Shown: positions 13,919-62,800 of the stretch, in pieces
Layout of the letters: every line of letters begins with the position of its first letter
How positions within the stretch are numbered: position 1 is the stretch's first letter
IMG/VR virus record: IMGVR_UViG_3300037420_001736
Span: 1 to 64,000 of that record
From: a virus
Direction: 5' to 3' (one strand)
Length of the DNA stretch: 64,000 nt
Translations under genes and position numbers: made by a program
Notes under the pieces: model-generated
Databases searched by the model: none
Seen by the model: only the letters and a program-made list of their open reading frames with translations
What the model was told of the DNA's origin: nothing

Positions 13919-13925
13919 AAAACGA

Positions 13926-14071: not shown

Positions 14072-14109
14072 TGGGCTTTCAACGGGTTATGGGCGCAGCG
14101 AGGCGGCCT

Positions 14110-14128
14110 CGGGCGCACTTCGGGCGCA
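14110..14128 (+). promoter_or_regulatory. Two CGGGCGCA boxes at 11-bp spacing upstream of tRNA-Leu
   Basis: CGGGCGCA at 14110 and 14121, in the same orientation as the 13889 cluster. Confidence 0.55.
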
Positions 14129-14164
14129 CGTAAGGACGGGACAGCCGGTGATCAGCAGTGAAGT

Positions 14165-14250
14165 GCCGGGGTGGCGGAACGGTAGACGCGCGGCGCTCAA
14201 AACGCCGTGTCCGCAAGGGCGTGCAGGTTCGATTCCTGTTCCCGGCACCA
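14165..14250 (+). tRNA. tRNA-Leu(CAA): tRNA-Leu (anticodon CAA), class II with long variable arm, CCA encoded
   Basis: Acceptor GCCGGGG/TCCCGGC. Anticodon loop CT-CAA-AA. Variable stem-loop GTGTCCGCAAGGGCGT. T-loop GGTTCGATTCC. 86 nt. Confidence 0.9.
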
Positions 14251-44843: not shown

Positions 44844-46916
44844 ATGGGAGCACCTGGTCGCAGCGGCAAGTGGCGCAAGCACGGCGTCGGCGACTGGCAC
44901 GCCGGCCTGGCCGCGGCCATCACCGTGCTGGAGCAGAAGACCGGATTCGTCGTCACCGAGCGCCGCAAGGTGATCGAGCCTGGCACGACGTTCCGCCAGT
45001 GGGTCGAGCAGCTGGCCGTCGATGGCCTGAAGGTCGACGGCAAGCCGTTCACGCTCGACGACCGGCCGGCGATGGCCTGGATCTACGACCAGATCCCGAG
45101 CACCGAGGACGAGGCCTTCCGCCTGGTGCTGGCGCTGATGAAATGCGCGCAGGTGGGCTTCACCGTGATGGAGATGCTGGCCGCGGTCTACCTGGGCCTG
45201 CGCTTCGGCCCGGCCACCATCGGCATGTTCCTGCCCGACATGAACCTGGCCGGCCTGAAGTCGACCGAGCGCTTCATGCCGATCGTGCGCAGCGTGCCGA
45301 AGGTGCACGAGCTGATGACGCAGGACGCGGCCGACGGCTCAGGCCGCAAGGCCGGCGAGGGCAACGTCAACCGCCGGCGCATCGACCAGGCGCTGTTCAT
45401 CTTCAGCTGGACCAGCGGCCGCGCCACCACCGAGTCGGTGCCGATGGACGTGCTGTCCCTCGACGAGGTGCAGGAGATGACGCTGGAGCAGATCGAGAAG
45501 ACCTACGAGCGCATGAGCGCGTCGGCGATCCGCTTCATGCAGATGGGCAGCACGGCCAACTGGCCCGACGCCGACATCCACCACTGGTACAAGCGCGGCA
45601 GCCAGCACCGCTTTTTCACGCGCTGCAAGACCTGCGGCAGCGAGAAGCCGCTGGACGAGTATTTCCCCGACTGCATCCGCGTGGTCGACGACCGCTGGCG
45701 CTACGTGTGCCCCGACGGCCACGTAATCGATGACCCGCAGCATGGCGAGTGGCGCGCCGAGAACCCGGCCGCGGACCCGCCCGTCGACGTCACCGTGCCC
45801 AAGCGCGACCGGCCGCTGCGCATCCGCAGCATCCACTTCCCGCAGTTCCTTTCACCGACGATCAGCGCGCAGGAAATCATCGACGCCTACCGCCACGCCA
45901 CCGACATGAAGAACTTCTTCAATCGGAAGCTGGGCAAGCCGTACCTGGACCCGAGCCAGGTGCCAGTGACGCTGGAGCACCTGCGCGAGTGCGAGCGCCT
46001 GGGCATCGAGGCCGGCCTGACGTGGCTGTCGCGCGCGCGCGGCACGTTCATGGGCATCGACCAGATGGGCCAGTTCAACGTCGTGGTGATCAAGTACAGG
46101 CTGCCCGACGGCCGCCAAGCCTTTGCGCACGTCGAGGAGGTCTACAGCGAAGACCCATTCGCGCGCTGCGACGAGCTCATGGACCAGTTCGGCGTGCAGT
46201 GCTGCGTGCTGGAGATCAACCCCAACTACAACGACGCGAAGCGCTTCGCCAACCGCCACCGCGGCAAGGTGTTCATCTGCGACAGCTTCGGCTCGCTGAA
46301 GGAGGACATGATCGTCTGGGGCGACGCGCCGAAGCAGAACGCCAGCGAGCGCCGCACCGACGACGAGGAGAAGGACCGCTACACCCTGCGCATGGACCAG
46401 TACAAGTGCATGCAGGTGTCGATGGCGCGCTTCGTCAAGGGCCTGTGCCTGTTCCCCGACAGCCAGGGCTTGGTGCAGGAGGTGCGCGAGAAGGGCGTTG
46501 CGCAGGTGGCCGCGGTGCTGCCGCGCGCCTGGCACCACTTCACCAAGACCGCGCTGGTGGCCGAGAAGGACGAGGAGACCAACCAGTTCAAGCGCAGCGT
46601 CAAGAAGGTGGGCATCGACCCGCACTTCAGCTACGCCAACATGCTGGCCGACGTGGCCTGGGCGCGCGCCCACGGCACCAGCACATTCCTGATGCCGGAG
46701 GTGAAGGGCGTGAGCGAAGACGTGAAGAAGGCCGAGGACATGAACCTGCACGGCCTGCCCGCCAACGTGGCGGCGATGATTCAGGTGCTGCCGGCCGGCC
46801 AGGTCTGCGGCCGCTGCAGCGCGTTCGAGGAGGCCACCAGCCGCTGCGTCGAACGCGAGCTGGTCGTGAACGCGCGCGACCAAGGCTGTCCGCTGTGGGA
46901 CCCGGTCGTGACCTGA
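44844..46916 (+). CDS. terL: Terminase large subunit (GpA-like)
   Basis: 690 aa. Walker A-like LMKCAQVGFT. VLSLDEVQEM. C-terminal nuclease-size region. Confidence 0.8.
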   Translation: MGAPGRSGKWRKHGVGDWHAGLAAAITVLEQKTGFVVTERRKVIEPGTTFRQWVEQLAVDGLKVDGKPFTLDDRPAMAWIYDQIPSTEDEAFRLVLALMKCAQVGFTVMEMLAAVYLGLRFGPATIGMFLPDMNLAGLKSTERFMPIVRSVPKVHELMTQDAADGSGRKAGEGNVNRRRIDQALFIFSWTSGRATTESVPMDVLSLDEVQEMTLEQIEKTYERMSASAIRFMQMGSTANWPDADIHHWYKRGSQHRFFTRCKTCGSEKPLDEYFPDCIRVVDDRWRYVCPDGHVIDDPQHGEWRAENPAADPPVDVTVPKRDRPLRIRSIHFPQFLSPTISAQEIIDAYRHATDMKNFFNRKLGKPYLDPSQVPVTLEHLRECERLGIEAGLTWLSRARGTFMGIDQMGQFNVVVIKYRLPDGRQAFAHVEEVYSEDPFARCDELMDQFGVQCCVLEINPNYNDAKRFANRHRGKVFICDSFGSLKEDMIVWGDAPKQNASERRTDDEEKDRYTLRMDQYKCMQVSMARFVKGLCLFPDSQGLVQEVREKGVAQVAAVLPRAWHHFTKTALVAEKDEETNQFKRSVKKVGIDPHFSYANMLADVAWARAHGTSTFLMPEVKGVSEDVKKAEDMNLHGLPANVAAMIQVLPAGQVCGRCSAFEEATSRCVERELVVNARDQGCPLWDPVVT

Positions 46917-47023
46917 AGATGAGGGCTCTTGCGTTGCAGCGAGTGAACCCGCCAACCCTGTCAGGAGTCCCGCCCATGAAGTGAGACCATCGGCACCTTG
47001 CGCCCGACGAGCGCCCGCCGAGA

Positions 47024-47062
47024 AGCCCCGACGCGCTAACCCCGCGTCGGGGCTTTGTTTTT
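47024..47062. terminator. Strong terminator between terL and the minus-strand island
   Basis: GCCCCGACGCG..CGCGTCGGGGC hairpin followed by TTTGTTTTT. Confidence 0.7.
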
Positions 47063-47085
47063 GGCCGGACGCGACAGACTGCGGA

Positions 47086-47385
47086 TCAGTCGGCCGGCTG
47101 CAGCGCCAGGTAGGCCGCGGCGCGCGCAAGCACGTCGCCATGGCAGGGCAGCGGCGCGCAGCAGCAGCACAGCCGGCGGCCGTGCAGTGCGCGCACCTTG
47201 GAGGCGAATGCCGGCTCGTTGCGCATGCGGCGCCAGAGGTACACCCGAAAGCTCGCGATCGCCTGCTCGCGCGAGGTGAGCGCGTCGATGGTGTACGGGT
47301 TGCCAAAGTCGCTGCCGCGCATGATGTCGACGGCATCGGGCGGCACCCGGCCGCCGTAGTGGTGCTTGTTGATGACGATCGTCAT
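47086..47385 (-). CDS. DUF4326 domain protein
   Basis: MTIVINKHHYGG...MRGSDFGNPYTI...LCCCCAPLPCHGDVL. Confidence 0.7.
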   Translation of the reverse strand: MTIVINKHHYGGRVPPDAVDIMRGSDFGNPYTIDALTSREQAIASFRVYLWRRMRNEPAFASKVRALHGRRLCCCCAPLPCHGDVLARAAAYLALQPAD

Positions 47386-47480
47386 GCGGCCGCCAGCGCG
47401 GCAACGGCCAGCACCGCCAGGCCGACCAGCAGCACGCGCGGCACCCAGAACGCCAACAGCAGTCGCGTGCGCAGCGTCAT
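47382..47480 (-). CDS. 32-aa hydrophobic peptide
   Basis: MTLRTRLLLAFWVPRVLLVGLAVLAVAALAAA. Overlap-coupled at both ends. Confidence 0.35.
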   Translation of the reverse strand: MTLRTRLLLAFWVPRVLLVGLAVLAVAALAAA

Positions 47481-47737
47481 TGCGCATCCTCGTCGGTGTA
47501 GAAGCCGGGCGCCAGCTTGCGTTCCTCGCGCGGCTTCGCGAGCTCGGCGCGATCGGCGGCCAGGTGCGCCGTCCTGGCGGCCTCCTCTCGATTGAGCCGG
47601 CGCGCCTCTTTGATCGCGCACTGCTCGGTGGGGCAGTCGCACATGATGGTGCCGGTGGTGTCGGCCGCACAGGTGCGCACGACAAGCCAGCGATCATCGT
47701 CGCCGGCCACAGCGCTGTAGGTGAAGACCGGATCCAC
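47477..47737 (-). CDS. Small hypothetical protein
   Basis: GTG start just after the upstream stop. ...IMCDCPTEQCAIKEARRL. Confidence 0.4.
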   Translation of the reverse strand: MDPVFTYSAVAGDDDRWLVVRTCAADTTGTIMCDCPTEQCAIKEARRLNREEAARTAHLAADRAELAKPREERKLAPGFYTDEDAQ

Positions 47738-47739
47738 GC

Positions 47740-47982
47740 TCAGTGCCCGCAGGGCAAGGCGCCGTGCTCGTCGACCTGGTGGCGCGCGCCGCAGCTGATG
47801 CACAGCGGCAGCTGGTGCAGGGTGCGCGGCTGCAGCGGGTCGGCGCCTGCTCGCTGCTCTGGTGTGAGATGGAACGCGCGGTAGGTGATCGGTGTCGCTG
47901 GGCGGTTGAGCGGAATGCTCTCCATCATGCGGCGCTGCGCTTCTGTTAGCTCGATGGCCTGGTGATGTTGCGGGTTCGGCAT
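47740..47982 (-). CDS. Small hypothetical protein
   Basis: 80-aa track ORF. C-terminal CISCGARH...C. Confidence 0.45.
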   Translation of the reverse strand: MPNPQHHQAIELTEAQRRMMESIPLNRPATPITYRAFHLTPEQRAGADPLQPRTLHQLPLCISCGARHQVDEHGALPCGH

Positions 47983-47993
47983 GGGTTCTCCTC

Positions 47994-48209
47994 CTATTCA
48001 GAAACGACGCCAATGAATTCGCCATCGGTGTCATAGACGTAGCGCCGCGTGCCGGCCGAGCTGGTCTCGCGCAGCGGTCGACCGCCATCGTCGTACTCCA
48101 CAACCCAGCGCACGCCGGCGACGGTGTATGCCTTCACGGCGCATGGCAGCGTGGGGTGCCTGCGTGAGTAGCACTCCACGCTGCTCGGCTCGCTGAGGTT
48201 CTGGGTCAA
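47994..48209 (-). CDS. YD-repeat-like mini-protein
   Basis: AGGAGGAGAG RBS plus TTG start. VVEYDDGGRPL...YVYDTDGEFIGV. Confidence 0.4.
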   Translation of the reverse strand: MTQNLSEPSSVECYSRRHPTLPCAVKAYTVAGVRWVVEYDDGGRPLRETSSAGTRRYVYDTDGEFIGVVSE

Positions 48210-48219
48210 GGCTCTCCTC

Positions 48220-48732
48220 CTACAGTGAGGCCGCGAGCTCGAACACCGACCGCGGCACGTTGGTGATCTCCGGCGCGCGTGTTCGCGTCCGCTTCTCCGC
48301 TGCACGGGCGCGTCGGTAGGCATTGGTCTGCGACACAGCGCGCGGCTGCGGTTTGTCCCGACCAGGCCACGCAGCGTAAACCGGTGCGTAGACGTTGCCG
48401 GAAAGAACCCAGTCGTGAATGTGGACAAGCATGTACTTCCAGTGCAGCCGCTGCAGGCGACCGCCGGCGGCCTGGGTGCTCAGCCCCATGCGGATCTCGA
48501 TGGCGTCGCGCGTCATCGGGCCGAGGCGATCGAGCGTCAGCAGCACCGCTTCCAGCTTGGCGTGCGGCCGCGCGGCGATCACCAGGTTCTGCCGGCGCAG
48601 CAGCCGGCGCCGGCGGCAGGTGCCCATCCAGGAGCGCTTGAAGCCGGCGGCCTGCAGGGCAGCGACGATGTCGCTCGTGGTGCCGGGCAGCGACAGGATG
48701 CGCAGCTCGTCGCTCGTCCAATGGTGACTCAC
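48220..48732 (-). CDS. Putative DNA-binding regulator
   Basis: GTGA overlap start. WTSDELRILSLPGTTSDIVAALQAAGF and a wHTH-like MTRDAIEIRMGLSTQAAGGRLQRL. Confidence 0.45.
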   Translation of the reverse strand: MSHHWTSDELRILSLPGTTSDIVAALQAAGFKRSWMGTCRRRRLLRRQNLVIAARPHAKLEAVLLTLDRLGPMTRDAIEIRMGLSTQAAGGRLQRLHWKYMLVHIHDWVLSGNVYAPVYAAWPGRDKPQPRAVSQTNAYRRARAAEKRTRTRAPEITNVPRSVFELAASL

Positions 48733-49418
48733 TCCACCGCTCCCTGGCGAAGCTGACGGGCACGCCAGACGCAGATTGCCAGCCCGCTCAGCAGCAGCGC
48801 CCACGTGCCAGGCTCTGGCACCGCCGGCACTGGCGGCCGCGGCGGCAGCACGATCGGCGGCGGCAGCTGCCACACGATCGGCGGGTGGCTCACCGGCAGC
48901 GGCGGCCAGGCCGGCTGCCACACCGGCGGCGCCTCAGCCACCAGCGGCGGCAGCACCGGCTCTTGTGGCAGCACGGTGAAGGGGATGTCGGCCAGCAGCA
49001 CCGCGCCGCCACCAGGCGCTGGCGAGTCGAGCTCGACGGGCGTCGCCGCCTGCGGCTTCGGCTTCGGCACCAGGTCGACCAGCGAGACATTGCGGCACAC
49101 CGTCGGCACGATGACGCACGCGCCTTCGGCGCAGAACACCAGGCCGCGCTCGCGCATCGCATCGCTCCACTTGGCGCGGCTGACGGCGCCGCACACCTGA
49201 CCGCGGCCGAAGTGCATCTGCCGCAGGTTGGTGTACTTGGCCCGGCCCTCGATGGTGTCGCGCGTGATCAGTGCCATGTCGTCGTAGGCGCGCGCGGCCA
49301 CCTTGGCCTGCAGCGCCTTGATGGTGGCCGGCGGCAGGTCGTAGCGCGCCACCGCGGCCACCACGTCGCCCATGAACGGGTTCTTGCCGGGATCGTCCCA
49401 GCTGCAGGCGTCGATCAT
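48729..49418 (-). CDS. PEP-CTERM sorting-signal protein (MHFG-type)
   Basis: C-terminus VPEPGTWALLLSGLAICVWRARQLR. Pro-rich linker. LRQMHFGRGQVCG in the N-terminal domain. Confidence 0.7.
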   Translation of the reverse strand: MIDACSWDDPGKNPFMGDVVAAVARYDLPPATIKALQAKVAARAYDDMALITRDTIEGRAKYTNLRQMHFGRGQVCGAVSRAKWSDAMRERGLVFCAEGACVIVPTVCRNVSLVDLVPKPKPQAATPVELDSPAPGGGAVLLADIPFTVLPQEPVLPPLVAEAPPVWQPAWPPLPVSHPPIVWQLPPPIVLPPRPPVPAVPEPGTWALLLSGLAICVWRARQLRQGAVE

Positions 49419-49753
49419 CGCGCCTCTCCCGCTGCCGGTTGCGCCGCTAGTGCGTCACCCTTTGCCACGCGCTGCGCGAAGCACTGCTTGGCCGACGCGC
49501 ACCAACCCACGTTGCGGCAGTCCCTGCAAATCTCGGTGATGGGGCTGTCTTGCGGGTCCGGCTGCGAGGGGGCTGCGGCGAGGCGATCGATGGCGGCGAA
49601 CGCGCGCAGGCGTGCGTCGCGGGCATTGCTGATGCGGGCGAGCGTGCCGCCGCCGCAGTCCGCGTCCACCGCTGCAGCGATAGCCGCGTCAATGCGCCGC
49701 TTGACCTCGGCCGCCAGCGCCTCTCGCTCTCCCGGTGGTGGGGTGGGGTTCAT
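49415..49753 (-). CDS. Hypothetical Cys-containing protein
   Basis: MNPTPPPGERE start overlapping the upstream stop. CRDCRNVGWC. Confidence 0.45.
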   Translation of the reverse strand: MNPTPPPGEREALAAEVKRRIDAAIAAAVDADCGGGTLARISNARDARLRAFAAIDRLAAAPSQPDPQDSPITEICRDCRNVGWCASAKQCFAQRVAKGDALAAQPAAGEAR

Positions 49754-50004
49754 GCGGCATCCCTTTTGAAGTAACCTGGCTGGCCGCCGCACCAGGGGCA
49801 CTGATTCAGCAGCAGCCCGCGGTCCTTCGCGCTGGTCTTGTAGATCACGCCGAGCAAGCGCACCGCATCGTCCGCGCCGACCTTCTTGGTCGTGTCAAGC
49901 GTGTGTACGGCCTTGAACCCCTTGCCGCCGTCGCAAAGACGCGCCCCGAGGTGGTCGCAGATGCTGTTCTCACCACACTGCACAGCTCTCGTTTCGCCGC
50001 TCAC
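49750..50004 (-). CDS. Small zinc-binding protein
   Basis: GGAGG RBS, GTGA overlap. QCGENSIC...CPWCGG. Confidence 0.45.
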   Translation of the reverse strand: MSGETRAVQCGENSICDHLGARLCDGGKGFKAVHTLDTTKKVGADDAVRLLGVIYKTSAKDRGLLLNQCPWCGGQPGYFKRDAA

Positions 50005-50558
50005 TCTGCCTCCCCCTTCCTGGCGTCGGCCGGGCGCGTGGATGCGCGGGCGGCGCCGCGGTCTTGCCCCCACACGAACCACTGGCCGGTGCTGGCTTCG
50101 ATCAGGCTGCGCGCCTCGGGGTGCCGGTCGTAGATGCGTACCAGCAGTGCCTTCGCTCGCGTGAGGTCCGTGCTCAGCCGCTGCGCATCCTCTGCCTGCC
50201 CCCTGGGGGCGGCGAACGACAGGATCACCCAGCCCGGCATGAGACCGTAGCCGGCCAGCACATGCGACACGGTGCGCTCGATCTGCTCGCCGGTGTAGAC
50301 CAGCGGCGTACCTGCTCGCATTTCGGCGCCCGTGTGCTGCGTGCGGCGAAGCACGAGGGTGTCGCCCACCTGAAAGTCTCGGTCGTTGAGGCGAATCTCG
50401 TGCGTCTTGGCGCCGCTGGCCACCGCGTCGAACACCTCGGGGTCCGTCTTCAATTCGTGCACGCGCCCCGTCAGCACGGTCTGCGCGGCGTCGGCCAGCG
50501 CCAGCGCTTTCTTGCCGGCCTCAGCCACGACGTGCACCCAGCTTGCTGCTGCCCGCAT
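50001..50558 (-). CDS. ASCH/DUF3850 domain protein
   Basis: HELKTDPEVFDAVASGAKTHEIRLNDRDFQVGDTLVLRR. Start may be an internal GTG (50528/50537). Confidence 0.7.
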   Translation of the reverse strand: MRAAASWVHVVAEAGKKALALADAAQTVLTGRVHELKTDPEVFDAVASGAKTHEIRLNDRDFQVGDTLVLRRTQHTGAEMRAGTPLVYTGEQIERTVSHVLAGYGLMPGWVILSFAAPRGQAEDAQRLSTDLTRAKALLVRIYDRHPEARSLIEASTGQWFVWGQDRGAARASTRPADARKGEAE

Positions 50559-50778
50559 TCGGCTGATCGTCGCTGTAGTCGAGCTCGGACGGCACGCGCA
50601 GCCGCAGCATCGCCAGGCCGGCGCCGATCAGCACCACCAGCAGCACCGCCATCGCGCCGACGGCCGCCGAGGTGCTGAGCGTCGGCATGGTGCTGACCAC
50701 GGCCAGCATGATCGACACCATCAGCGCGGCGATCAGGTAGGGCAGCAAGCCGCTGCTGGCGGAACGGATATTCGACAT
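50521..50778 (-). CDS. Two-TM membrane protein
   Basis: 85-aa track ORF. First gene of the minus-strand island. Confidence 0.5.
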   Translation of the reverse strand: MSNIRSASSGLLPYLIAALMVSIMLAVVSTMPTLSTSAAVGAMAVLLVVLIGAGLAMLRLRVPSELDYSDDQPNAGSSKLGARRG

Positions 50779-50892
50779 GGGCCACTCCTTGAGGGTTTAT
50801 AGGGAACGGCCGGATTCTATCGAAGCTGATCAAAAAAGAGCAACCAACGGTTGTAGGGATTGCTCTCGGCGTCGTGACGCCAGCATGGCGGG
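50779..50892. promoter_or_regulatory. Divergent promoter region (island vs portal operon)
   Basis: Low-GC spacer with CTGATCAAAAAAGAG (50826-50840). The same box family occurs at 21391 and 32947. Confidence 0.5.
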
Positions 50893-52629
50893 ATGGACAA
50901 TGCCGCCTCCGTAGCGTTCAACCCTGGCGCCCCGGCCGATGAGCGCTATGACGCGCAGGCCGAGCTCCAGAAAGCCCACGCGCCGCGCTCGCTGGGCGAC
51001 CTGCTGATCCCGCCGGCCGAGCTGCAGCCGGTGATCGATCACATCCGCAACGACCTGGAGGAGCAGGCGATGACGAAGGCGCTGGCGAAGCGCAACGTCA
51101 TCCCCTTCCCGTCGACCGCGGTCAAGCAGCGCAAGCCCGGCATGCAGTCGGTCTGGCTGGACGACCTGCAGGTGCAGGTGATGGGCGACTGGTACGAGCG
51201 GCCCAGCGCCTTCAGCTTCGACATGATGCGCTCGATGGTCACGCAGACGCCGGTGCTCAACAGCGTGATCATGACGCGCCAGCGCCAGGTGCAGCGCTTC
51301 TGCCGCCCGCAGTCCGGCGGCAAGGGTCCGGGCTTCAAGATCGCGCTGAAGGACCAGGAGGCCCAGCCTGGCGACGACGAGAAGTCGTCCATGCTGCTGC
51401 TGCAGGACTTCTTCACACACTGCGGCTGGGAGAAGCGGCCGCGCCACCGCATGCGCCTGAAGCGCGACGACTTCGCCACCTTCATGGCGAAGCTCACGCG
51501 CGACACGCTGACCATGGACTCGATGCCGATCGAGACCGAGTGGAAGCGCGACAAGAGCCTGGGCCTGGACGGCATGTATGCGGTCGACGGCTCCACCATC
51601 CGCCTGTGCACCGAGAACGGCTACCGCGGCGACGACGAGATCGTCGCGCTGCAGGTGGTGCAGGGCAACATCCGCGCGGCCTACACCTGCGAGGACCTGG
51701 TCTACGTGCCGCGCAACCCGCTGACCGACGTGCTGGCCGGCGGCTACGGCCTGAGCGAGACCGAGCTGCTGGTGCGCACGGTGACGGGCTTCCTGAACGC
51801 CTTCACCTACAACACCAAGTATTTCGACTCCAACGCCATCCCCAAGGGGATGCTGCACCTGACCGGCAACTTCGACAGCACCGACATCGCGGCCTTCAAG
51901 CGCCAGTGGAACGCGATGGTCAAGGGCATCAACAACGCCTGGGCGCTGCCGGTGATGATCTCCAAGGACGCCGAGTCGAAAGCGGCCTTCGAGAACTTCG
52001 GCGTCGAGGTCAACGAGATGCTGTTCGGCAAGTGGATCAGCTTCCTGGTGAGCATGATCTGCGCGATCTACGGCATGGCGCCGGACGAGATCAACTTCGA
52101 GAGCTTCACCACCGGCACCAGTTCGCTGTCTGGCAGCGACACCGAGGAGAAGCTGATCAACTCGAAGGACAAGGGCCTGCGGCCGCTGCTGTCCTACTAC
52201 GAGAACCTGTTCAGCGACTATGTCGTCGCGGAGTACGGCGACAAGTATTGCTTCCGCTTCACCGGCCTGGACGACGAGGACCCGAAGGCGGTCGAGGAGC
52301 GCCGCAAGAACGGCATGACGTGGAACGAGTACCGCGCGCTCGACGACCTGCCGCCGGTCGAGGGCAAGCTGGGCGACGCGCCGATGAACCCGACGCTGAT
52401 TGGCGCCTGGCAGGCCGAGAACCAGCAGCCCGAGCAGGACTTCGGCCAGCCCGGCGCGATGCCGCCTGGCGAGGACGACGACGGCGAGGAGGGTGGCGAG
52501 GACTTCGGCGAGGCCGGCCCCGAGAACGACACCGGCGCCGACTTCGGCGAGGGTGACGACGACGCGCAACCGGGCCCGGACGAGCTCGCCAAGACCTTCG
52601 GCCTGCCGGTGTTCCGCCCCGAGCCATGA
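50893..52629 (+). CDS. Portal protein
   Basis: 578 aa, with an acidic G/D/E-rich C-terminus. Precedes the MuF-like gene. Called from size and position. Confidence 0.7.
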   Translation: MDNAASVAFNPGAPADERYDAQAELQKAHAPRSLGDLLIPPAELQPVIDHIRNDLEEQAMTKALAKRNVIPFPSTAVKQRKPGMQSVWLDDLQVQVMGDWYERPSAFSFDMMRSMVTQTPVLNSVIMTRQRQVQRFCRPQSGGKGPGFKIALKDQEAQPGDDEKSSMLLLQDFFTHCGWEKRPRHRMRLKRDDFATFMAKLTRDTLTMDSMPIETEWKRDKSLGLDGMYAVDGSTIRLCTENGYRGDDEIVALQVVQGNIRAAYTCEDLVYVPRNPLTDVLAGGYGLSETELLVRTVTGFLNAFTYNTKYFDSNAIPKGMLHLTGNFDSTDIAAFKRQWNAMVKGINNAWALPVMISKDAESKAAFENFGVEVNEMLFGKWISFLVSMICAIYGMAPDEINFESFTTGTSSLSGSDTEEKLINSKDKGLRPLLSYYENLFSDYVVAEYGDKYCFRFTGLDDEDPKAVEERRKNGMTWNEYRALDDLPPVEGKLGDAPMNPTLIGAWQAENQQPEQDFGQPGAMPPGEDDDGEEGGEDFGEAGPENDTGADFGEGDDDAQPGPDELAKTFGLPVFRPEP

Positions 52630-54245
52630 TCAAACCCAAGCTGCAGAAGCAGCCCCAGGCGCAGCCGCGCGACGTCGCACTCGGTGATGAGCTCTACGTG
52701 CACCACCGCGGCCAGCCGCACACCTGCCGCGTGGTGGCGCACGGCGCGCACGGCGTGACGGCCGAGATCGAGGGGCAGCATCACAAGGTCACCTGGGACA
52801 AGGTGCTCGGCCACAAGAGTCGCCGCATGCTGCGCTACGCGATCGCCGACCAGGGCGAGGACGGCATGATCCTGGAGGATGACGCCGGCACGCGGCGCTA
52901 CGTCGCCACCCCCAACGAAGCGAGTGAGGACCCCTACGTGGCGAAAGCGTTCGAGGGGCGGCGCGTCGCGCTGCTGCTGAAGGCCGAGGAACCTGGCGGC
53001 AGCGGCGCCGCGCCGCGCGCCGGCCTGGCGAAGAAGCAGATCACCGACCGCACCGGGCGCAGGCAGACCAAATGGGTGCGCACGAACAAGGACCAGCCGA
53101 AGCCGCGCCAGGCGGCCGCCGAGGATCCGCGCGGCGCGCAGCGCGGCTACGGCACGCACAACCTCGGCGCCGGCGACACCGTGCACTTCGCCGCCGGCGA
53201 CTACCAGGGCAGCGGCACGATCGTCGGCAAGCCGGGCGCCGACGGTGCGCACGTGAAGGACGCCAGCGGCCGCGTGCACCAGGTGCGCTGGAGCGAGGTG
53301 ACCGGCCACGAGCCGGCCGCTGATGTCGCAAAGCCCAAGGTGCAGCCGCAGGTGCGCGGCGAGCAGAAGCCGGTGCCGGCCGCCGAGTTCATCGCCAGCG
53401 ACTATGCCGCGCAGCACAACGACGCGGGCGTGACGGCCGAGGCCATCCTGGCGCAGTTCCCGGCCGACACGATGGAAAAGATCAGCGCCGTGCAAGAGCG
53501 CCTGCACAGCGTCGAGCAGACCATCGAGCTCTACAAGCAGGGCGACACCTACGACGACGAGCGCACGAAGATCCACCAGCGCATCTACGACCACTTCCTG
53601 TCGCCGCAGAAGGTCGAGGCGGCCACGCCGCCCGAGGGCCAGAAGCCGACGCTGACGATGCTTGGCGGCCGCGGCGGCTCCGGCAAGAGCTGGTTCGCCG
53701 GCCAGGTCTACGACCCGGGCAAGGCGATCGTCATCGACCCGGACGAAATCAAGGGCATGCTGCCCGAGTACGAGGGCTGGAACGCGCACCAGGTGCACGA
53801 GGAGTCGAGCGACATCACCAGCACCATCCTGCAGATCGCCGAGGAGCTGGGGCTGAACGTGGTGCTCGACGCGACGATGAAGACCGCCAAGAGCACGCTG
53901 GGGATGGCGAACAAGTTCAAGGCCAAGGGCTACCGGCTGGAGGCGCACTACATGCACCTGCCGCGGCAGGAGGCCGCCAAGCGCGCAGTGCAGCGCTTCC
54001 TCGGCAAGACCCAGCGCTACGTGCCGGTCGATGTGGTGCTGGGCAACACCGGCAACGAGGCAACCTTCGACCAGGTGCGCCAGCTGGCCGACAAGTGGTC
54101 GTTCCGCGACAACAACGTGCCGATGGGCCAGCAGCCGATCCTGATCAGCGAGAGCGGCAGCGGCGCCACGCCGGCGCAGCCTGGCGGCGGCCAGCCTTTG
54201 ACCAAATCCGAGCAAGCTGCGATCATCCTGTTCAGGAGAACGTGA
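52626..54245 (+). CDS. Zeta-toxin-like P-loop kinase domain protein with N-terminal repeat modules
   Basis: TLTMLGGRGGSGKSWF (Walker A) ...IVIDPDEIK...VVLDATM. Two ~45-aa repeats, each ending in ..H(K/Q)V(T/R)W..V.GH. Confidence 0.65.
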   Translation: MIKPKLQKQPQAQPRDVALGDELYVHHRGQPHTCRVVAHGAHGVTAEIEGQHHKVTWDKVLGHKSRRMLRYAIADQGEDGMILEDDAGTRRYVATPNEASEDPYVAKAFEGRRVALLLKAEEPGGSGAAPRAGLAKKQITDRTGRRQTKWVRTNKDQPKPRQAAAEDPRGAQRGYGTHNLGAGDTVHFAAGDYQGSGTIVGKPGADGAHVKDASGRVHQVRWSEVTGHEPAADVAKPKVQPQVRGEQKPVPAAEFIASDYAAQHNDAGVTAEAILAQFPADTMEKISAVQERLHSVEQTIELYKQGDTYDDERTKIHQRIYDHFLSPQKVEAATPPEGQKPTLTMLGGRGGSGKSWFAGQVYDPGKAIVIDPDEIKGMLPEYEGWNAHQVHEESSDITSTILQIAEELGLNVVLDATMKTAKSTLGMANKFKAKGYRLEAHYMHLPRQEAAKRAVQRFLGKTQRYVPVDVVLGNTGNEATFDQVRQLADKWSFRDNNVPMGQQPILISESGSGATPAQPGGGQPLTKSEQAAIILFRRT

Positions 54246-54406
54246 TGGACAAGAACGTCAAGCCGGAGCAGTTCGACGGCTACGATTGCCAGGAGCGGCC
54301 GCCGCTGTCGGACGCCTACCGCAAGAAGGCGCTGCCGCAGCACCTGCAGGACAAGCTCGCGAAGCGCGGCGCTGAAAAGCCGACTGAACCGCAGGGGAAT
54401 GCTTGA
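54245..54406 (+). CDS. Small hypothetical protein
   Basis: TGATG overlap. MDKNVKPEQFDGYDCQERPPL. 53 aa. Confidence 0.4.
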   Translation: MDKNVKPEQFDGYDCQERPPLSDAYRKKALPQHLQDKLAKRGAEKPTEPQGNA

Positions 54407-54432
54407 TCGAATTTGATCAGCGCCTGCAGAAT
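54403..54432 (+). promoter_or_regulatory. Promoter-like element with embedded palindromic box
   Basis: TTGATC, 17-18 nt, then CAGAAT. Box TGATCGAATTTGATCA at 54404-54419. Confidence 0.5.
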
Positions 54433-54568
54433 CGGCACCAACGACAGACGAGAGGTCGCTACCAGCAGACAGCCCTCAACCAGATGCGGGCCCGGCATGG
54501 AGTCCGGTGTCCCAACAAGCTGGCCGAAAAGCACTGCTGACTGCCGGGGGAAGGGCCTGGCAACGAAT

Positions 54569-54645
54569 TGTGGAGTAGCGCAGCACGGTAGCGCGCCAGG
54601 CTCATAACCTGGAGGTCGCAGGTTCAAGTCCTGCCTCCGCAACCA
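54569..54645 (+). tRNA. tRNA(CAU): tRNA with CAU anticodon (Met or Ile2), U1-A72, CCA encoded
   Basis: Hand-folded cloverleaf. Acceptor TGTGGAG/CTCCGCA. D stem GCGC/GCGC. Anticodon stem CCAGG/CCTGG with loop CTCATAA. T arm GCAGG-TTCAAGT-CCTGC. Confidence 0.8.
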
Positions 54646-55079
54646 GACAAACCAGCGAAGCAGAACGCGAGAGGGCCAGGGCCTGACGATCCTGGCTAAC
54701 GTACCGGGTGGCGCTGCCGACATCGAACGGCCCCGGCCGCGGAGGAAAACGCGCAAGTGCGATCGTCAGGCTGCGGGGCGTCACCCCACCAGCTGCGGAG
54801 CGCGAGTGAACCTGGTGCACGAGCGGTGAAGCCCCGCGCCGGAGACGTACCCGGACGTGAGAGCCTTCGGGCCCTCACGCATGCGCACAGCGACCACCAG
54901 CCATGCTGGTGGCGTGCGGCGGAAATCGCAGTGCGCAGTCGTGAGAGCCCGCTGAGCTGCAGCTTGGCCCTGCAGCAACCCTGCCTTTCCGGTAGAACGC
55001 CTTCCCTCCCTTTCTCACGCTGCCCATGCGAGCAGCGGGTCTCTCAGCAGACAGCCGCCTTCGGGCGGCTGTTTTGCTT
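54646..55079 (+). ncRNA. Candidate large structured RNA co-transcribed with tRNA(CAU)
   Basis: No credible ORF. Many GC-rich hairpins, two with UUCG loops (GTGAGAGCC-TTCG-GGCCCTCAC; terminator). CCACCAGC-cat-GCTGGTGG. Ends at a strong terminator. Confidence 0.4.
55051..55079 (+). terminator. Rho-independent terminator
   Basis: ACAGCCGCC-TTCG-GGCGGCTGT followed by TTTGCTT. Confidence 0.8.
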
Positions 55080-55342
55080 GCGGCGCCGTCGTGATCGCAC
55101 ACTGATCGCGGCCGCCGGAGCTTTCCTTTCGGCCGGTGGCTGCTGTGTGTGCTGAGAAGGCGCATCAGGGACCCCCAGCTGCGCGTGGGGTAGCGGCTTA
55201 AACACAACGCCAGCAGCAGATCACGGCGACACCCTCTGGGTGGGCCCTCCACGCCGGGGAGCTGCCGACCGAAGTTATGGGGCGGCCGCGTTGGTGGGGA
55301 CCGTGGCGCGGCCGCCCTGGTCGTGACTGCACGATCGGCAGC

Positions 55343-56497
55343 ATGGGCCTGTTCGTCGACCTGATCGCACTCTCCGAGGCGCGCACCAACGCGACGCTGG
55401 AGCTCATGTGCAAGGCCGAACACGGCGACGACGATGCCATCTGGCGCGAGCACGATTCGCCCTACATCCGCCGCCTGATCGAGCTGTTCACGCAGCGCGG
55501 CCTGATGCGCCTTGAGAGCTTCCGCACCGAACTCGTCGCCTGGCTCAAGGGCGAGCGCCACACGCACGCCGGCACCACGATGCCGCGCCCCGAGGGGTCA
55601 ATGCGCCTGTGGACGCCCGAGGAGCGCGGCCTGGTCAAGCTGTACCTGGAGACGCTGCCGCCCGAGCGCTGGACGCTGGACGACCACATGATGATGGTCG
55701 ACTACCTGGTGCAGCGCTACCTGCCCGAGAGCGAGATCCGCACCGAGGCCGAATGGCTGACGACGCGCGCCTCGCTGATGGGCCGCGTGCAGGCCAACCT
55801 GGAGAAGCTGTCGGCCGAGCAGGTCGACCAGGTGCTGCAGGCGCTGCCCACCACGGTGCGCGAGGCGCGCGAGCTCAAGCCGACGGCAAAGCAGCTGGCG
55901 GCCATGGACTTCGCGCGCGAGCGCGCCTGCGAGGCCGTCACGCGCCTGGCCGACGACGCGCGCCACCGCATGCGCTACGTGGTCGCGCAGGACGTCGAGC
56001 GCCGCGTGCTGCGCGTGCCAGACACCTCGCCGCAGGCGCTGGAGCAGCGGCTGTTCGACGAGTTCTCGACGCTCAACCGCGACATGCGGCGCATCGCGGT
56101 CACCGAGGCCGGCAACGCGGCGAACACGGGCTACATCGCCACGCTGCCGCCGGGCCGGCGCGTCAAGCGCACCGAGCAGTACCGCGGCGTGTGCGCCTGG
56201 TGCGCGCGCATCAACGGCCGCATCTTCACCGTCGTTGACCCCTCGAAGGCTGACAAGGACGGCGAGACGGAGGTGTGGGTCGGCAAGGACAACGTCGGCC
56301 GCTCGGCCGCGCCGCGCAAGCGCGTCGGCCAGCTGCTGGTCGAGCGCGAGCCGCACGAGCTGTACTGGGTGGCCTGCGGGACGCAGCACCCGCACTGCCG
56401 CGGCACGTGGCTGCCGGTGGCTGATGACCAGCCTGGGGATGACCCGCAATTCGCAGCATGGCTGAACCAGCTGCTCACGAAGAAGGAGCCAGCCTGA
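55343..56497 (+). CDS. MuF-like (SPP1 gp7 family) head morphogenesis protein
   Basis: Internal ATG MGLFVDLIAL. VTEAGNAANTGY...GVCAWCARINGRIFTV...GTQHPHCRGTW. Confidence 0.75.
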   Translation: MGLFVDLIALSEARTNATLELMCKAEHGDDDAIWREHDSPYIRRLIELFTQRGLMRLESFRTELVAWLKGERHTHAGTTMPRPEGSMRLWTPEERGLVKLYLETLPPERWTLDDHMMMVDYLVQRYLPESEIRTEAEWLTTRASLMGRVQANLEKLSAEQVDQVLQALPTTVREARELKPTAKQLAAMDFARERACEAVTRLADDARHRMRYVVAQDVERRVLRVPDTSPQALEQRLFDEFSTLNRDMRRIAVTEAGNAANTGYIATLPPGRRVKRTEQYRGVCAWCARINGRIFTVVDPSKADKDGETEVWVGKDNVGRSAAPRKRVGQLLVEREPHELYWVACGTQHPHCRGTWLPVADDQPGDDPQFAAWLNQLLTKKEPA

Positions 56498-59295: not shown

Positions 59296-59662
59296 CCGCG
59301 GCGATGATGACGGGAATCGTCATCGCGATCAGCTCGCGCCGGAAAGCACCCGGCGTGACGCCGGTGTGACGCTTGAACGCCTCATTGAAGTGGCTCTGGC
59401 TGGAGAAGCCACACCGATAGGCGACGTCACCCAACTTGATGGACTGGTCACGCAACAGGCGCTTTGCGACGTCGATGCGGCGCCAGCACACATATCGCAT
59501 CGGCGACTTGCCGACGCACTTAGCGAATCTTCGGCTGAAGTGAAATTGGCTCATAAATGCCACGCGGGCCAATTCATCCAGTGTAATGCGCTCACCAATA
59601 TTGGTATCGATATATTCTAAAGCTCTAGACACGCCGCGTGGCATTGCATTTGTTTTGGTCAT
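59273..59662 (-). CDS. Stand-alone AraC/XylS-family HTH activator (MarA/SoxS-like), moron
   Basis: LDELARVAFMSQFHFSRRFAKCVGKSPMRYVCWRRIDVAKRLL...YRCGFSSQSHFNEAFKRHTGVTPGAFRR. 129 aa. Locally low GC. Confidence 0.85.
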   Translation of the reverse strand: MTKTNAMPRGVSRALEYIDTNIGERITLDELARVAFMSQFHFSRRFAKCVGKSPMRYVCWRRIDVAKRLLRDQSIKLGDVAYRCGFSSQSHFNEAFKRHTGVTPGAFRRELIAMTIPVIIAAVNQLLAA

Positions 59663-59818
59663 GACTCCGGTCTGATTCGGTTAATCCAAATCTAGACTCT
59701 GAATATATTGATAATGTGAATAGGTGAAAGAGATTTATTCTCTCCGTCGGCGCGCGCGGCTGCTGCCGATTCGATCGTGACACGATGATCCCGGGACGCA
59801 CCCCACGGGCCGTCCCTG

Positions 59819-62800
59819 ATGATCATCTTCCTCAAGAAGTCCCAGTTCGCTCTGTTCGATGCGCCGGTGCGCGTGGCGCAGCATGTGCGCAAGGACGGCA
59901 CCGTCGTGGCGCCGCACACGCGCGTGCAGAAGGTGCGCGGCCAGCACCCGCCGTCACATCACCAGGCGCAGGGCGACCTGTTCGGCGACGCGGCGCCGCG
60001 ACAGCACCAGCTGTTCGCCGAGCAGGAGGCCAAGCAGGCGATCGAGCAGGCGAAGAAGCCCGAGCGCGAGAGCCGCGGCCCGGCTGCCAGCGACGCCTGG
60101 GTGAACGAAGGCAAGAGCGCCGACGAGCTGATCCGCGACAAGGCTCACAGGCTGGGCGCCGAGCTGGCCGGCATCATCACCGAGGAGGCGAGCGAGAAGG
60201 ACTTCGCGCCGACCGAACTCCCGAAGGTGATCGCGCAGTGGGCCTCCGAGAACAAGGTGCCCGCCGACGAGCTGCGCCAGGCCGTTTTGGCCTCGCTCGG
60301 CCGGTATGACCTGAGCGAAGGGCGCAAGGCGCAGATTCGCCGCGCGCTGGATCCGACGGCGAAGAAGCCGGCCGCCAATGGCGCTGGATTCGGCACGCTG
60401 TACCACGGCACGCCGAAACCGTTCGATGCCTTCCGCGACCCGACTGGCAGCGCTGACCGCGGCGCCGGCTACAACCACCAGGGCCCGGCCGTCTACCTCA
60501 CGGACGACCCGCACGGCTACGCGCGCTTCTTCGCGCGCGAGGGCGGCGCGAAGCTGGCGTACCAGCTGCAGCGCGAGGGGAAGAAGGACGAGGCTGCACA
60601 GGCCTTCAGTGGCTGGGGCCACGTGCTGTCTGTCAAGCTGGCAGACGACGCGCGCATCCTGGAGCTCGACAAGGCGCCGGCCGAGGTCAAGGACCTGTTC
60701 GAGCGCTCGGTCGGCCATCCCGAGGTCGGCCAGAAGCTGCGCGAGGTGGTGCTGGCGCTGGGCTACGCCGGCCTGGCGTTCACCGAGCCGAACCACCCCG
60801 AGGGCTGGCCGACCAAGGCCGGCGCGCGCACGGTCGCTGTCTATCGGCAGGACAAGGCGATCATCACCGGCGACAAGCCGGCCGCCGAGTACGACCCGAA
60901 GAAGAAACCGGCGCCGACGACGCAGGACGCGATCGACGAGCTCGCCGCCAAGGTCACGCGCTACGCCTCCGGCCTGTCGCGCGCGAAGGACTTCGAGGCC
61001 GCCGGCCACGGCTCGCACCCGGTGGGCGTCGACGTCGGCCAGCTGTCCGACAAGGCGATGGACCAGCTCGCCGACCTGGTGACGCGGCTGCACACGCCGG
61101 TCTTCGTCGACAGCGGCGCCTACAGCCTGTTCCGCTCGCGCGAGAAGCGCCAGGCCGCCGGCGAGGACGTCGAGCCGCTGGACTTCAGCCAGGTGCTGGA
61201 GCGCTACGACCAGCTCACCGACAAGATCGGCGAGAAGAACGAGGCCGAGGAGGACCTGCCCAAGCCCATCCTGGTGATGCCCGACGTCATGGGCGACCAG
61301 GCGGCATCGCTCGACGAGATCAAGAAGCACGCGAAGTGGATCAACGTCGAGTGCAGCTTCGACGTCGCGCGGCCGCTGATCGCGATGCCCAAGGGCGACA
61401 TGAGCCTGACGGCCTACTACGACGCCGTGGTCGAGGCGATCGGCACCAGCCGCTTCATCGTCGGCATCCCGGCTGTGAGCGGCGCCTGGACGCCGGAGCA
61501 GGTCACTGCGTTCCTGCGCGAGCGCGAGCCTGCGCGCGTGCACTTCCTCGGCGCGCTGCACGAGAGCCGGCTGAACAAGTGGCTGGCCGCCGTGGTCGAG
61601 TCAGGCCACCAGCCCGAGATCACCGCCGACGCCAACCCGCTGCGCAGCCAGGTGCTGCCGCGCGACGGCACCAAGCTGGCGCCGGGCGAGCGCGCCAAGA
61701 AGATCACCGACAAGCTGGGCAAGCCGGCCCGAGCGCAGGAGCTCAAGCGCGTGATCGAGCAGCACGGCGGCGAGGATGGCGTGCGCCGCATGCTCGCCGG
61801 CGCCGACTTCGAGCAGCAGCAGCGCTTCATCGGCCTCATTTCCGACCTGTCGGGCAAGCCGCAGATCGAGGTGCGGCACCAGTACGGCCTGGGTGACGGG
61901 CCGGTCGAGGGCGACCGCAAGGTCGAGAACGGAGTCACCTATGTCCTGCGAAACGGACGCTGGCACCGAGCCGGCGATGATGCCGCGGCCGTCGCGCCGG
62001 CGCCGGCGGCTGCCGACACGGGCGCCGACCGCCTGGTGCTGGTCGCGTGCGGCGCCGCTAAAAAGGACGGCGCGCATTCTGCACGGCAGCTTTACACCGG
62101 CGCACTGGCTGGCGTCCTGAACAAGCACCTGCGCCCCGGCAGCGCCGACGTCGCGATCATCTCGGCCAAGCACGGCCTGGTGCACGGCGACCAGGTGATC
62201 GAGAGCTACGACCAGCGCATGACGCCGGAGCGTGCGAAGGAGCTGGCCGCGCAGCCGGTGGACCTGTCGCGCTTCCATGGCAAGCGCTACCGCGAGGTGT
62301 TCATCGCCGGCGGCGCCGACTACCGCGCCGTCGGCGCGGCCTACGTCAAGCAGCTGCAGGACGCCGGCATCGTGGCGGCCGACGCCAAGGTCGACGCCAC
62401 CAGCGGCGGCATCGGCGAGATCCGCGGCCAGCTGGGCGCGTACCTGCGCAGCCTGACGGATGACAAGCTCGATCCGAATCAGGTGCTTTTCCATGGCACA
62501 GGGGCTGACTTCTCCAAGTTCAACGGGCCGGCCTACTTCACGATCAACCGGGGTGTCGCTGAAGACTCTGCCCGCGCTACGGCCGAAGCCTATGGCGGCA
62601 ACGCGCGCGTGATCAGTGCTCGGCTCAGCCTGCGCAATCCGGCGATCGTCTCCGCTGATGAGATCGAAGGCCTGAAGTACGACGACGCCGCTATGCGGCG
62701 TCTGCGAGAAGCCGGGCATGACGGCGCGATGCGGGCTGACCTGCAGGAGGTGTTGGCGTTCGATCCATCGTCTATCGAAACGGTCGGGTCTGAACCGCTT

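Follow-up and report, generated by a model that had tools for sequence, protein, structure and literature searches.

What occupies the long interval between two genes of the head region in the viral DNA record IMGVR_UViG_3300037420_001736? The stretch of that record analysed here (the window; 64 kb, GC content about 68%) carries a prophage adjoining a tRNA-Leu gene. At positions 54407-55342, its portal and Zeta-domain genes are separated from the next gene, which encodes a 384-aa protein, by about 940 bp. A preliminary description had regarded about 700 nt of this interval, downstream of a tRNA(CAU) gene, as a candidate large structured RNA, possibly akin to the GOLLD and ROOL RNAs of other phages. 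In our reading, the interval is a non-coding RNA (ncRNA) cassette and not an empty spacer. Its three parts are the tRNA gene, an RNA of several domains (about 430 nt) and a separate leader belonging to the 384-aa gene; the multi-domain RNA includes a 45-nt two-hairpin core, R1, that recurs in P1 and many other phages.

A non-coding cassette of two units

In the genes flanking the gap, G+C content at third codon positions (GC3) stands at 0.93-1.00 in one phase; from about 54410 to 55340 it is flat, between 0.55 and 0.80 in all three phases. Three long open reading frames (ORFs) cross the gap (54757-55155 on the plus strand, 54875-55567 and 54316-54756 on the minus strand). None of the three passes a filter based on GC3 and its second-position equivalent (GC3/GC2) and none has a Pfam match, so they do not bear out the concern that a protein frame had been misjudged. 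Decayed remnants of the extra genes that relatives carry at this position were ruled out by tblastn, which detected no trace of them in the window. By all these measures the spacer is non-coding, as initially described. Its main features are as follows.

54404-54433, plus strand: promoter-like element, TTGATC, 18 nt, CAGAAT (read from the sequence)
54569-54645, plus strand: tRNA(CAU) of elongator type, CCA encoded (tRNA-Met by ARAGORN; Rfam tRNA model, 69.3 bits)
54646-54812, plus strand: clade-specific 5' domain of the multi-domain RNA, with conserved blocks in the related loci L001-L003
54813-54860, plus strand: R1 core module, a 45-nt two-hairpin element (covariance model, 48.8 bits, E 6e-11)
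55051-55079, plus strand: intrinsic terminator, ACAGCCGCC-UUCG-GGCGGCUGU plus a U run, with a 9-bp GC stem (dG -24.3, z -5.3)
about 55172-55331, plus strand: structured leader of the 384-aa gene (75-80% nucleotide identity to L001-L003)
55343-56497, plus strand: 384-aa gene, start MGLFVDL (GC3 signal from about 55320)

The tRNA is confirmed by both ARAGORN and the Rfam model. It is not an initiator, since it has a U1-A72 pair and the anticodon stem CCAGG/CCUGG, and it decodes as Met (the ARAGORN label) or Ile2. The promoter-like element reported upstream of it is indeed present, and 77-87% identical at the equivalent position in L001-L003, but it agrees with the consensus at only 8 of 12 positions and fell under the threshold of a consensus scan, which did not flag it. 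From its sequence and place it is a candidate start of the tRNA/ncRNA unit.

Relatives of the locus were collected from IMG/VR with the Zeta-domain protein as query, which yielded 13 loci. The closest, L001-L003 (72-73% amino-acid identity), keep the tRNA-Met after the homologous genes and have three nucleotide patches in common with the window, at 54650-54885, 54941-54981 and 55172-55269. Extra cargo is also present in them: one ORF of 60 aa after the tRNA, one of 78 aa, and a gene for a NinI-like metallophosphatase. The site is therefore a hotspot of cargo exchange, at which the RNA parts have nevertheless been retained. Among named phages, PHB04 of Bordetella is the nearest; its RNA island holds a tRNA 87% identical to that of the window, a permuted transfer-messenger RNA (tmRNA) and an R1 motif. 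Phage-borne permuted (two-piece) tmRNA genes share RNA islands with R1 and tRNA-Met in two loci, L023 (4754-5004, minus strand; 92.6 bits with the Rfam model tmRNA_permuted) and PHB04 itself (L037; 2000-2241, plus strand; 104.5 bits). The GenBank record of PHB04 annotates neither the tRNAs nor the tmRNA of its island. A scan of genome contigs with the 384-aa protein added one distant locus (L014), which has no R1 match.

All the hairpins named in the preliminary description were located in the sequence, among them the UUCG loops at 54866-54869 and 55060-55063 and the CCACCAGC/GCTGGTGG stem formed by 54894-54901 with 54905-54912. Fold energy alone is not decisive, since the z-score of 54646-55085 (-3.1) is similar to that of the opposite strand (-3.7). 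The decisive evidence for structured RNA beyond chance comes from conservation and covariation in related phages: pairs change in a compensatory manner in R1, in the hairpin module M2 and in a hairpin of the 5' domain, and a long-range closing helix keeps its position while its sequence changes. The candidate structured RNA is thus real and conserved, and lies in a tRNA-associated phage context, as proposed at the outset.

It does not, however, extend over 700 nt as one molecule. The terminator at 55051-55079, correctly recognized before and confirmed here by sequence and fold (a simple terminator scan did not flag it), probably forms the 3' end of the ncRNA and therefore divides the stretch into two units, the RNA of 54646-55079 and the leader of about 55172-55331. 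A terminator also lies ahead of the homologous downstream gene in the syntenic locus L035. The upstream unit, moreover, is variable: the stretch filled by its modules measures about 430 nt in the window versus about 750-870 nt in L001-L003, module number and order differ even among these closest relatives, and only the 45 nt or so of R1 are conserved beyond them.

The second unit was assigned to the 384-aa gene, and not to the upstream RNA, because the segment 55172-55269 matches what immediately precedes the homologous gene in L001-L003 and because the leader has a consensus fold in which both partners of four pairs have changed. Within the leader, AUCACGGC at about 55220 pairs with GUCGUGAC, a conserved box located 16-23 nt ahead of the AUG. 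The 11-bp stem GGGCGGCCGCG/CGCGGCCGCCC previously noticed just before this gene exists (55281-55317; dG -34.5, z -4.1) but is a variable arm of the leader. The start of the gene was placed at 55343 (MGLF...) rather than at 55277 on account of the aligned start in L001-L003 and of the MGLF start in L035.

The R1 core and its companion modules

R1 was found first as a DNA pattern derived from the most conserved block, GCACGAGCGGUGAAGCCCCGCGCCGGAGACGUACCCGG. It occurs once in the 64 kb, the runner-up scoring 16.6 bits. As the window copy was included in the seed alignment, its score of 48.8 bits is partly so by construction; the pattern match is independent of the model. The window copy, on the plus strand, comprises the following parts.

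54819-54822: ACGA
54823-54826 with 54834-54837: helix H1, GCGG/CCGC
54839-54842 with 54851-54854: helix H2, CCGG/CCGG
54843-54850: H2 loop, AGACGUAC

The common structure can be written 5'-(GCAAN)ACG(A)-[H1]-[H2], in which H2 is GCCGG/CCGGC with a loop AGACGUAA or AGACGUAC (AGACGUAM). H1 has 4-7 bp and varies freely in sequence, length and loop; stems recorded are GCGG/CCGC, GCAG/CUGC, GCUG/CAGC, GAGG/CCUC, GUGG/CCAC and UCGG/CCGA and, among longer ones, GCCAGC/GCUGGC, GUCCUU/GAGGAC and GCAGAG/UUCUGC. In an alignment of 40 sequences, each of the four H1 pairs varies at both of its positions, pairing is retained in 98.8% of the cells, and the covariation score is 0.26 compared with 0.06 in shuffles and at most 0.06 with slid partners. 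H2 was fixed by the first search patterns. A later pattern that left its stem free recovered the compensatory variants GCGGG/CCCGC and GCUGG/CCAGC, and when the loop was left free it was canonical in 7 of 7 matches. The 5' ACG and the CGU of the loop are complementary and both invariant, the 5' end falling into two classes, ACG-G and ACGA-G, that are offset in the alignment; these segments may pair in a pseudoknot. A long-range CGCG/CGCG pairing proposed by RNAalifold from four sequences was disregarded, as it conflicts with the well-supported H1. The H2 hairpin has a GGA at the edge of stem and loop and, in one locus (L032, 12616-12760), R1 lies 61 nt upstream of a phage csrA gene (MLILTRRIGETLMIGDD...); a link to CsrA binding is a candidate idea only.

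The R1 pattern occurs in at least 120 IMG/VR stretches with GC contents from 39 to 68%. The matches listed represent 108 distinct contexts, which group into 53 flank clusters; one cluster (L153) is a false positive from coding sequence. Named phages with R1 are P1, P7, D6, RCS47, SJ46, Bordetella phages PHB04 and IFTN2/6, and Enterobacter phage Tyrion. Of 92 loci searched with the covariance model, about 70 have a strong copy; the more distant Zeta-protein relatives L004-L014 have none. In a metagenome scan with a relaxed pattern, the P1-like copies and L113 were real among the matches listed, the rest being GC-rich coding sequence ('..AGDV..').

In all cases, R1 is oriented like the adjacent tRNAs and the recurrent downstream genes. 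It is located at the 5' edge of the next unit, be it a tRNA or an ORF. Three settings can be distinguished. In the first, R1 precedes a tRNA. P1-like phages leave 4 nt between the two, L201 leaves 6 nt and L006 8 nt; in L024 no gap separates R1 from the tRNA as delimited by Rfam. In the second, found in many lineages, it lies 19-90 nt ahead of a start codon with a ribosome-binding site. The third consists of long non-coding stretches such as that of the window. In P1 (L036, AF234173) R1 maps to 3001-3037, corresponding to 68989-69025 of the record. The annotated 'dicF-like region' lies about 450 nt upstream of it and tRNA-Asn follows after 4 nt; at R1 itself, no feature is annotated in the GenBank entry of P1 or in the RefSeq P1-like E. 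coli plasmids. A search for a protein partner shared by most R1 loci gave none: the largest families, RecT and Sak4-like ATPase, reach 14-15 of the 53 lineages, and their co-occurrence with R1 reflects operon context.

In a Pseudomonas-like subfamily (L160 6664-7110, L159, L171, L025, L173 and others) the ncRNA measures about 400-450 nt and R1 stands near its 3' end. The RNA begins at a stop codon (TGAACAACCAGCGCCACGACAGCCUGUCGUUAAC...) and a 16-bp long-range stem, CAUCGGGGUGUGAUCU/AGAUCACACCCCGAUG, encloses a variable insert, which in L159 contains a T-arm-like hairpin. Downstream of R1 come a CCUUCCCC tract and a terminator-like hairpin.

Two further RNA elements were noticed near R1 copies. 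The motif UUCCGAC..GCAGACCG..GGGAAUCAAACCG..UGUCUGC follows HD-domain (PF13328) genes and flanks R1 or tRNA-Ser; its sites are L006 8307-8360 and 8637-8690, L015 about 3960-4015, and L023 (minus strand) about 165 nt upstream of R1. It has no Rfam match and is not in the window. In L161, an Rfam RT-15 RNA (8777-8959, 167 bits), a reverse-transcriptase-associated type, lies about 4.9 kb downstream of the R1 copy.

Around R1, the multi-domain RNA of the window is made up of the following elements.

54674-54697, plus strand: hairpin of the 5' domain, CCAGG/CCUGG stem with loop GCCUGACGAU, then CUAACGU (fold)
54872-54947, plus strand: M2, CCCUCACG-CAU-GCGC...GCGC-AGU-CGUGAGAG, with a distal CCACCAGC/GCUGGUGG stem (dG -47, z -3.3)
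54942-55046, plus strand: cloverleaf-like domain with hairpins at 54957-54977, 54981-54995 and 55018-55037, the last being M7 (minimum free energy, MFE, fold)
54942-54955 with 55033-55046, plus strand: long-range closing helix of this domain, UGAGAGCCCGCUG with CAGCGGGUCUCUCA (MFE fold)

The 5' hairpin covaries between the window and L001-L003 (CCAGG/CCUGG, GCCGG/CCGGC, GCUGG/CCAGC). M2 is a long hairpin with a fixed CAU/AGU internal loop, its 3' strand continuing CGUGAG after the AGU; its 5' strand can alternatively pair within a small UUCG hairpin at 54856-54879. Among the six instances of M2 in the window clade, compensatory changes occur: an inner-stem pair switches between C-G and G-C, and in one instance CACG/CGUG becomes CAUG/CAUG. 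The M2 pattern occurs in six more phage contigs, which lack R1, and in one of these it starts 7 nt after a tRNA-Met. M7 recurs in L001-L003 and L015. Altogether, modules R1, M2, M3, M4, M5 and M7 co-occur on one strand in many loci, in changing order, and none of the six has an Rfam match.

The closing helix has paired counterparts in L001 (UGAGAGCUU/GAGUUCUCA), L002 and L003 (UGAGGGUGG/CCACCCUCA), L352 (GAGGGCG/CGCUCUC) and L356 (GUGAGGGUG/CACCUUCAC), with the 3' partner always directly after a conserved hairpin, M7 or M4. MFE folds of the window, L002, L352 and L356 place it around three hairpins in a cloverleaf-like arrangement. In L354, GAGGGUG/CACCCUC was read by eye only; neither the best match of the script nor the MFE fold showed it. 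The case for this helix is made by its fixed position combined with its changing sequence, the length of the complement alone being insufficient. Because its 5' strand can also close M2, two pairings compete. The C/U-rich CCUCC tract CCUUCCCUCCCUUUCUC, at about 54997-55017, is unpaired in the MFE fold and is followed by M7 and the terminator. Some relatives have, next to the 3' strand of the helix, an A-CCA reminiscent of a tRNA acceptor end (L001 8966-8978, L002 8709-8721 and L354 about 2235-2250, as in UGAGGGU...ACCCUCA-A-CCA); in the window GCAG stands in its place. Judged from the sequence, the A-CCA may denote tRNA-like processing, or be there by chance.

Rfam 15 covariance models were run at gathering thresholds on the whole 64 kb and at E<=10 on 54300-55450 (1.15 kb). 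The former search returned only two tRNAs. The latter found no GOLLD, ROOL, OLE, HEARO, intron, tmRNA, C4, riboswitch or credible ribozyme, the only ribozyme match being Hammerhead_II on the minus strand (14.5 bits, E 9.7, cut-off 37). The inability to recognize a family by eye is thus matched by Infernal. ARAGORN and the Rfam tRNA and tmRNA models detected nothing in 54646-55342, and blastn of the gap against 50,697 phage records aligned the tRNA part only. In 40 related loci Rfam returned only tRNAs, tmRNA_permuted, anti-hemB (L035), a DicF-like small RNA (sRNA) in L246 and RT-15 (L161). No match falls over R1, M2, M3, M4 or M7 in the window or in these loci, and in P1, PHB04 and 31 other loci none of the models overlaps R1; around R1 in P1, C4 is absent at E<=0.1. 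By these tools, R1, M2 and the cloverleaf-like modules appear to form an undescribed set of RNA families, unpublished or non-Rfam candidate lists lying outside the comparison. The R1 motif string was not found in the papers searched, with the reservation that R1 could still be listed in the full catalogue of 10,006 viral structured-RNA candidates (PMC10690425).

Possible functions of the cassette

We tentatively regard the locus as a tRNA/regulatory-RNA cassette whose stable RNA would pair through its 3' end with the ribosome-binding sites of targets, R1 acting as a docking site for a host factor; this is the reading we prefer, though we would put it at somewhat short of an even chance. The setting would be a temperate phage of a high-GC, Burkholderiales-type host. 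A single transcript, started at the weak conserved promoter-like element or reading through from the portal and Zeta-domain genes, would carry the tRNA(CAU) and then, from its CCA end, the RNA of about 430 nt, stopping at the terminator at 55051-55079. Processing of the tRNA by RNase P, together with 3'-end trimming, would release this RNA, which is assembled from reusable modules: R1, M2 and the cloverleaf-like three-hairpin domain. Its last 90 nt resemble a trans-acting sRNA, in that a CCUCC-rich (anti-Shine-Dalgarno) tract is exposed and is followed by a hairpin and a U-tailed terminator, and it is this likeness that suggests pairing with ribosome-binding sites. The near-invariance of R1 across hosts and its position at the 5' edge of the next unit suggest docking of a conserved host factor, which could set the processing or the stability of the adjoining RNA unit.

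The 3' end has a layout similar to that of Hfq-type phage and prophage sRNAs such as anti-hemB (RF02837), a Burkholderia sRNA family composed of a hairpin with a UCCUCCCU loop, a second hairpin and a terminator (threshold 49.5 bits), and DicF; DicF-like sRNAs share leaders with R1 in P1 and L246. In the syntenic locus L035, which has the homologous downstream gene, an anti-hemB match of 50.6 bits reaches the gathering score and its CCUCC tract is in a loop.

Several observations weigh against this proposal. The 3' end of the window matches neither the anti-hemB nor the DicF model, even at E<=10, and is preceded by about 340 nt of further structured RNA, unlike these sRNAs. The ends of the transcript are deduced only from sequence features. 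L001-L003 have no terminator after the RNA, which continues into a gene equipped with a ribosome-binding site, so that in these loci a cis-acting leader fits better than a free sRNA. Complements of 7-9 nt within 400 nt are not rare in shuffled sequences, the comparative support for domains outside R1 comes from 3-6 partly related sequences, and the ACG:CGU pseudoknot is a candidate whose two sides are both invariant. Finally, counts of G-U versus A-C combinations do not settle which strand folds.

The main rival, which we consider unlikely on present evidence, is a cis-acting signal in operon leaders like HK022 put or lambda nut, in which nascent R1 binds RNA polymerase or Nus factors. The polymerase would then resist terminators and Rho across tRNA arrays, sRNA genes and the 55051-55079 terminator, allowing expression of the 384-aa and later genes. 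R1 resembles these signals in being small, two-hairpin, orientation-specific and present in the leaders of early operons. In two overlapping clusters of 14-15 lineages each (29 entries summed) it lies in an early recombination/replication operon, 1-3 kb upstream of RecT, Sak4-like ATPase or YqaJ exonuclease genes on the same strand; in a cluster of 10 lineages a CI/LexA-type repressor gene precedes it by about 2.9 kb. In L020 and L246, which have divergent promoters in this region, a strong TTGACA promoter precedes R1 by about 45 nt, and in P1 it belongs to the leader of the C1-controlled ban operon. A terminator and then a gene follow R1 in the window, L035, L020, L030 and L022; the RNA of L001-L003 enters genes directly; and near-invariance across hosts would suit a conserved partner such as host RNA polymerase or a Nus factor. 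However, R1 is unlike HK022 putL in sequence and in structure, putL having two long irregular stems over about 70 nt, with a 5' AGACG..CGUCU stem I and a triplex (PMC9378689). Membership in the put family was rejected on reading the putL sequence, which does not align with R1, whose helices have 4-5 bp. R1 has no boxA, and terminators within 600 nt are not enriched on its downstream side (12 downstream versus 10 upstream), that of the DicF-like element of P1 being upstream. Its tight spacing to the next tRNA or start codon would be unneeded in a processive signal, and in the window R1 stands in the late (head) region, after the tRNA and not before it.

A bolder reading, to which we assign a similarly low probability, sees in R1, M2 and the cloverleaf-like domain (with M3, M4 and M7) an undescribed combinatorial RNA toolkit of temperate phages of Beta- and Gammaproteobacteria. 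This toolkit would build tRNA-associated ncRNAs as a proteobacterial counterpart of GOLLD/ROOL, and R1 would be a new functional core: an RNA-only element docking polymerase or an RNase, a ribozyme or an aptamer.

Taken by itself, the idea that R1 forms the heart of a riboswitch, binding a small molecule as an aptamer, or of a small ribozyme whose self-cleavage cuts a polycistronic phage RNA into units, appears improbable. A size of about 45 nt, an invariant junction and loop and a free H1 are the usual signature of such RNAs; R1 does stand at unit boundaries, and some 5' untranslated regions reuse GCCGG/CCGGC downstream, or have CUCCGG after R1, making alternative pairing possible. Yet the genes downstream (RecT, CsrA, HNH endonuclease, virion proteins, regulators, tRNAs) are too heterogeneous for a riboswitch regulon, no conserved expression platform was seen in these loci, and H2 conserves even its stem sequence, as a plain helix does not usually do. 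Rfam 15 gave no credible match to a known class at E<=10.

Slightly less probable still is a proteobacterial equivalent of GOLLD or ROOL in the strict sense, the whole 430-nt RNA being one architecture that forms an RNA-only assembly, perhaps through kissing contacts of the self-complementary ACGU in the R1 loop. Much of the context agrees: the RNA lies in phages and prophages (with integrase, terminase and portal genes) next to tRNAs or tmRNA, which are within 600-800 nt of it in about nine lineages; it is a modular, multi-helix ncRNA of several hundred nucleotides with long-range helices; in L006 a tRNA stands between two parts of the non-coding stretch; and the Pseudomonas-like RNAs of about 400 nt have a long closing stem. 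Models of GOLLD, ROOL, OLE and HEARO, however, have no match in the gap or in the 40 other loci, the hosts are Proteobacteria and hence of a different phylum, and the RNA of the window measures about 430 nt against about 580-800 nt. Broad conservation is limited to 45 nt, and the order, copy number and total length of modules vary even in close relatives, which argues against one fixed tertiary architecture. The contextual argument made for these families was sound, and the family guess was wrong.

Equally improbable is that the stretch has no RNA function and is a recombination scar or moron-exchange hotspot gathering GC-rich palindromes, or a set of protein-binding palindromes in DNA: the differing cargo of relatives (NinI-like phosphatase, small ORFs), fold z-scores alike on both strands and the palindromic GCCGG-N8-CCGGC would fit, but orientation is fixed with respect to neighbouring genes and tRNAs, stems covary while loops are invariant and asymmetric, R1 is kept across phages of 39-68% GC, the long-range helix is retained while its sequence changes, and gene remnants are absent.

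Whatever the function, two known groups of RNAs offer partial parallels. The C4 RNA of P1/P7 and the CI RNA of P4 are RNase P-processed, tRNA-like immunity RNAs cut from operon leaders. The cassette shares with them a leader-embedded structured phage RNA and a cloverleaf-like domain; its repeated, mutually complementary segments CCCUCACG, CGUGAGGG and CACCCUCA recall seqA, seqB and seqC of P4, and some relatives have the A-CCA after the closing helix. It differs in being much longer, in lacking CCA in the window copy, and in having no match to the Rfam C4 model. With tRNA and tmRNA it has in common the true tRNA upstream, a cloverleaf topology whose closing helix has at least 7 bp and, in L023 and PHB04, islands with a permuted tmRNA; unlike them, it has no T-loop consensus and went undetected by the tRNA and tmRNA searches.

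Structured or regulatory ncRNAs beside tRNAs are already known in phages; it is the R1-type modules that have no Rfam model. If our analysis is correct, a strongly conserved 45-nt fold is unannotated in P1, among the best-studied phages, and in at least 50 other lineages. The invariance of loop and stem across distant phages implies that R1 has either a conserved partner in the host or an activity of its own, a question that can be tested directly in E. coli with P1. The window shows how a conserved core is combined with reusable hairpin modules into RNAs of several hundred nucleotides beside tRNAs. The theme of large phage RNAs next to tRNAs would thereby be widened from Firmicutes and Actinobacteria (GOLLD, ROOL) to Proteobacteria, and new models could annotate stretches now left blank or mis-called as ORFs.

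Prophage setting and neighbouring genes

Other features of the window are listed below.

12662-13897: tyrosine integrase (Arm-DNA-bind_3 and Phage_integrase, Pfam)
14165-14250: tRNA-Leu(CAA), beside the integrase
44844-46916: large terminase, gpA-type
50893-52629: portal gene
52626-54245: 539-aa protein with a C-terminal Zeta-toxin/AAA_33 domain
ending at 54406: 53-aa ORF, 3' of the 539-aa gene

The region 12662-14250 is the probable left junction of the prophage, which also has helicase and primase genes and appears to extend beyond the end of the window. The N-terminal part of the 539-aa protein is related to a PHB04 protein and its C-terminal part is the Zeta-toxin/AAA_33 kinase domain; judging by sequence, this protein and the 53-aa ORF resemble a polymorphic toxin of MuF type accompanied by a small immunity-like gene. 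The 'MuF-like' label earlier attached to the 384-aa gene finds no support, as its product has neither a Pfam nor a PHROG match; the 'minor head protein' PHROG match belongs to the upstream 539-aa protein.

A PAPS-reductase-like gene and an InPase-domain gene lie 3' of the 384-aa gene. Beyond them, GC content drops sharply to 0.47-0.53 at 59300-59900, versus the 68% background. The dip separates the InPase-domain gene from two large ORFs on the minus strand (59954-61561 and 61601-63994), neither of which has a Pfam match. On the other side of the cassette, about 4 kb between terminase and portal (46917-50892) contain minus-strand ORFs only (e.g. 48729-49418 and 50001-50558); this segment is another insertion interrupting the packaging/head module.

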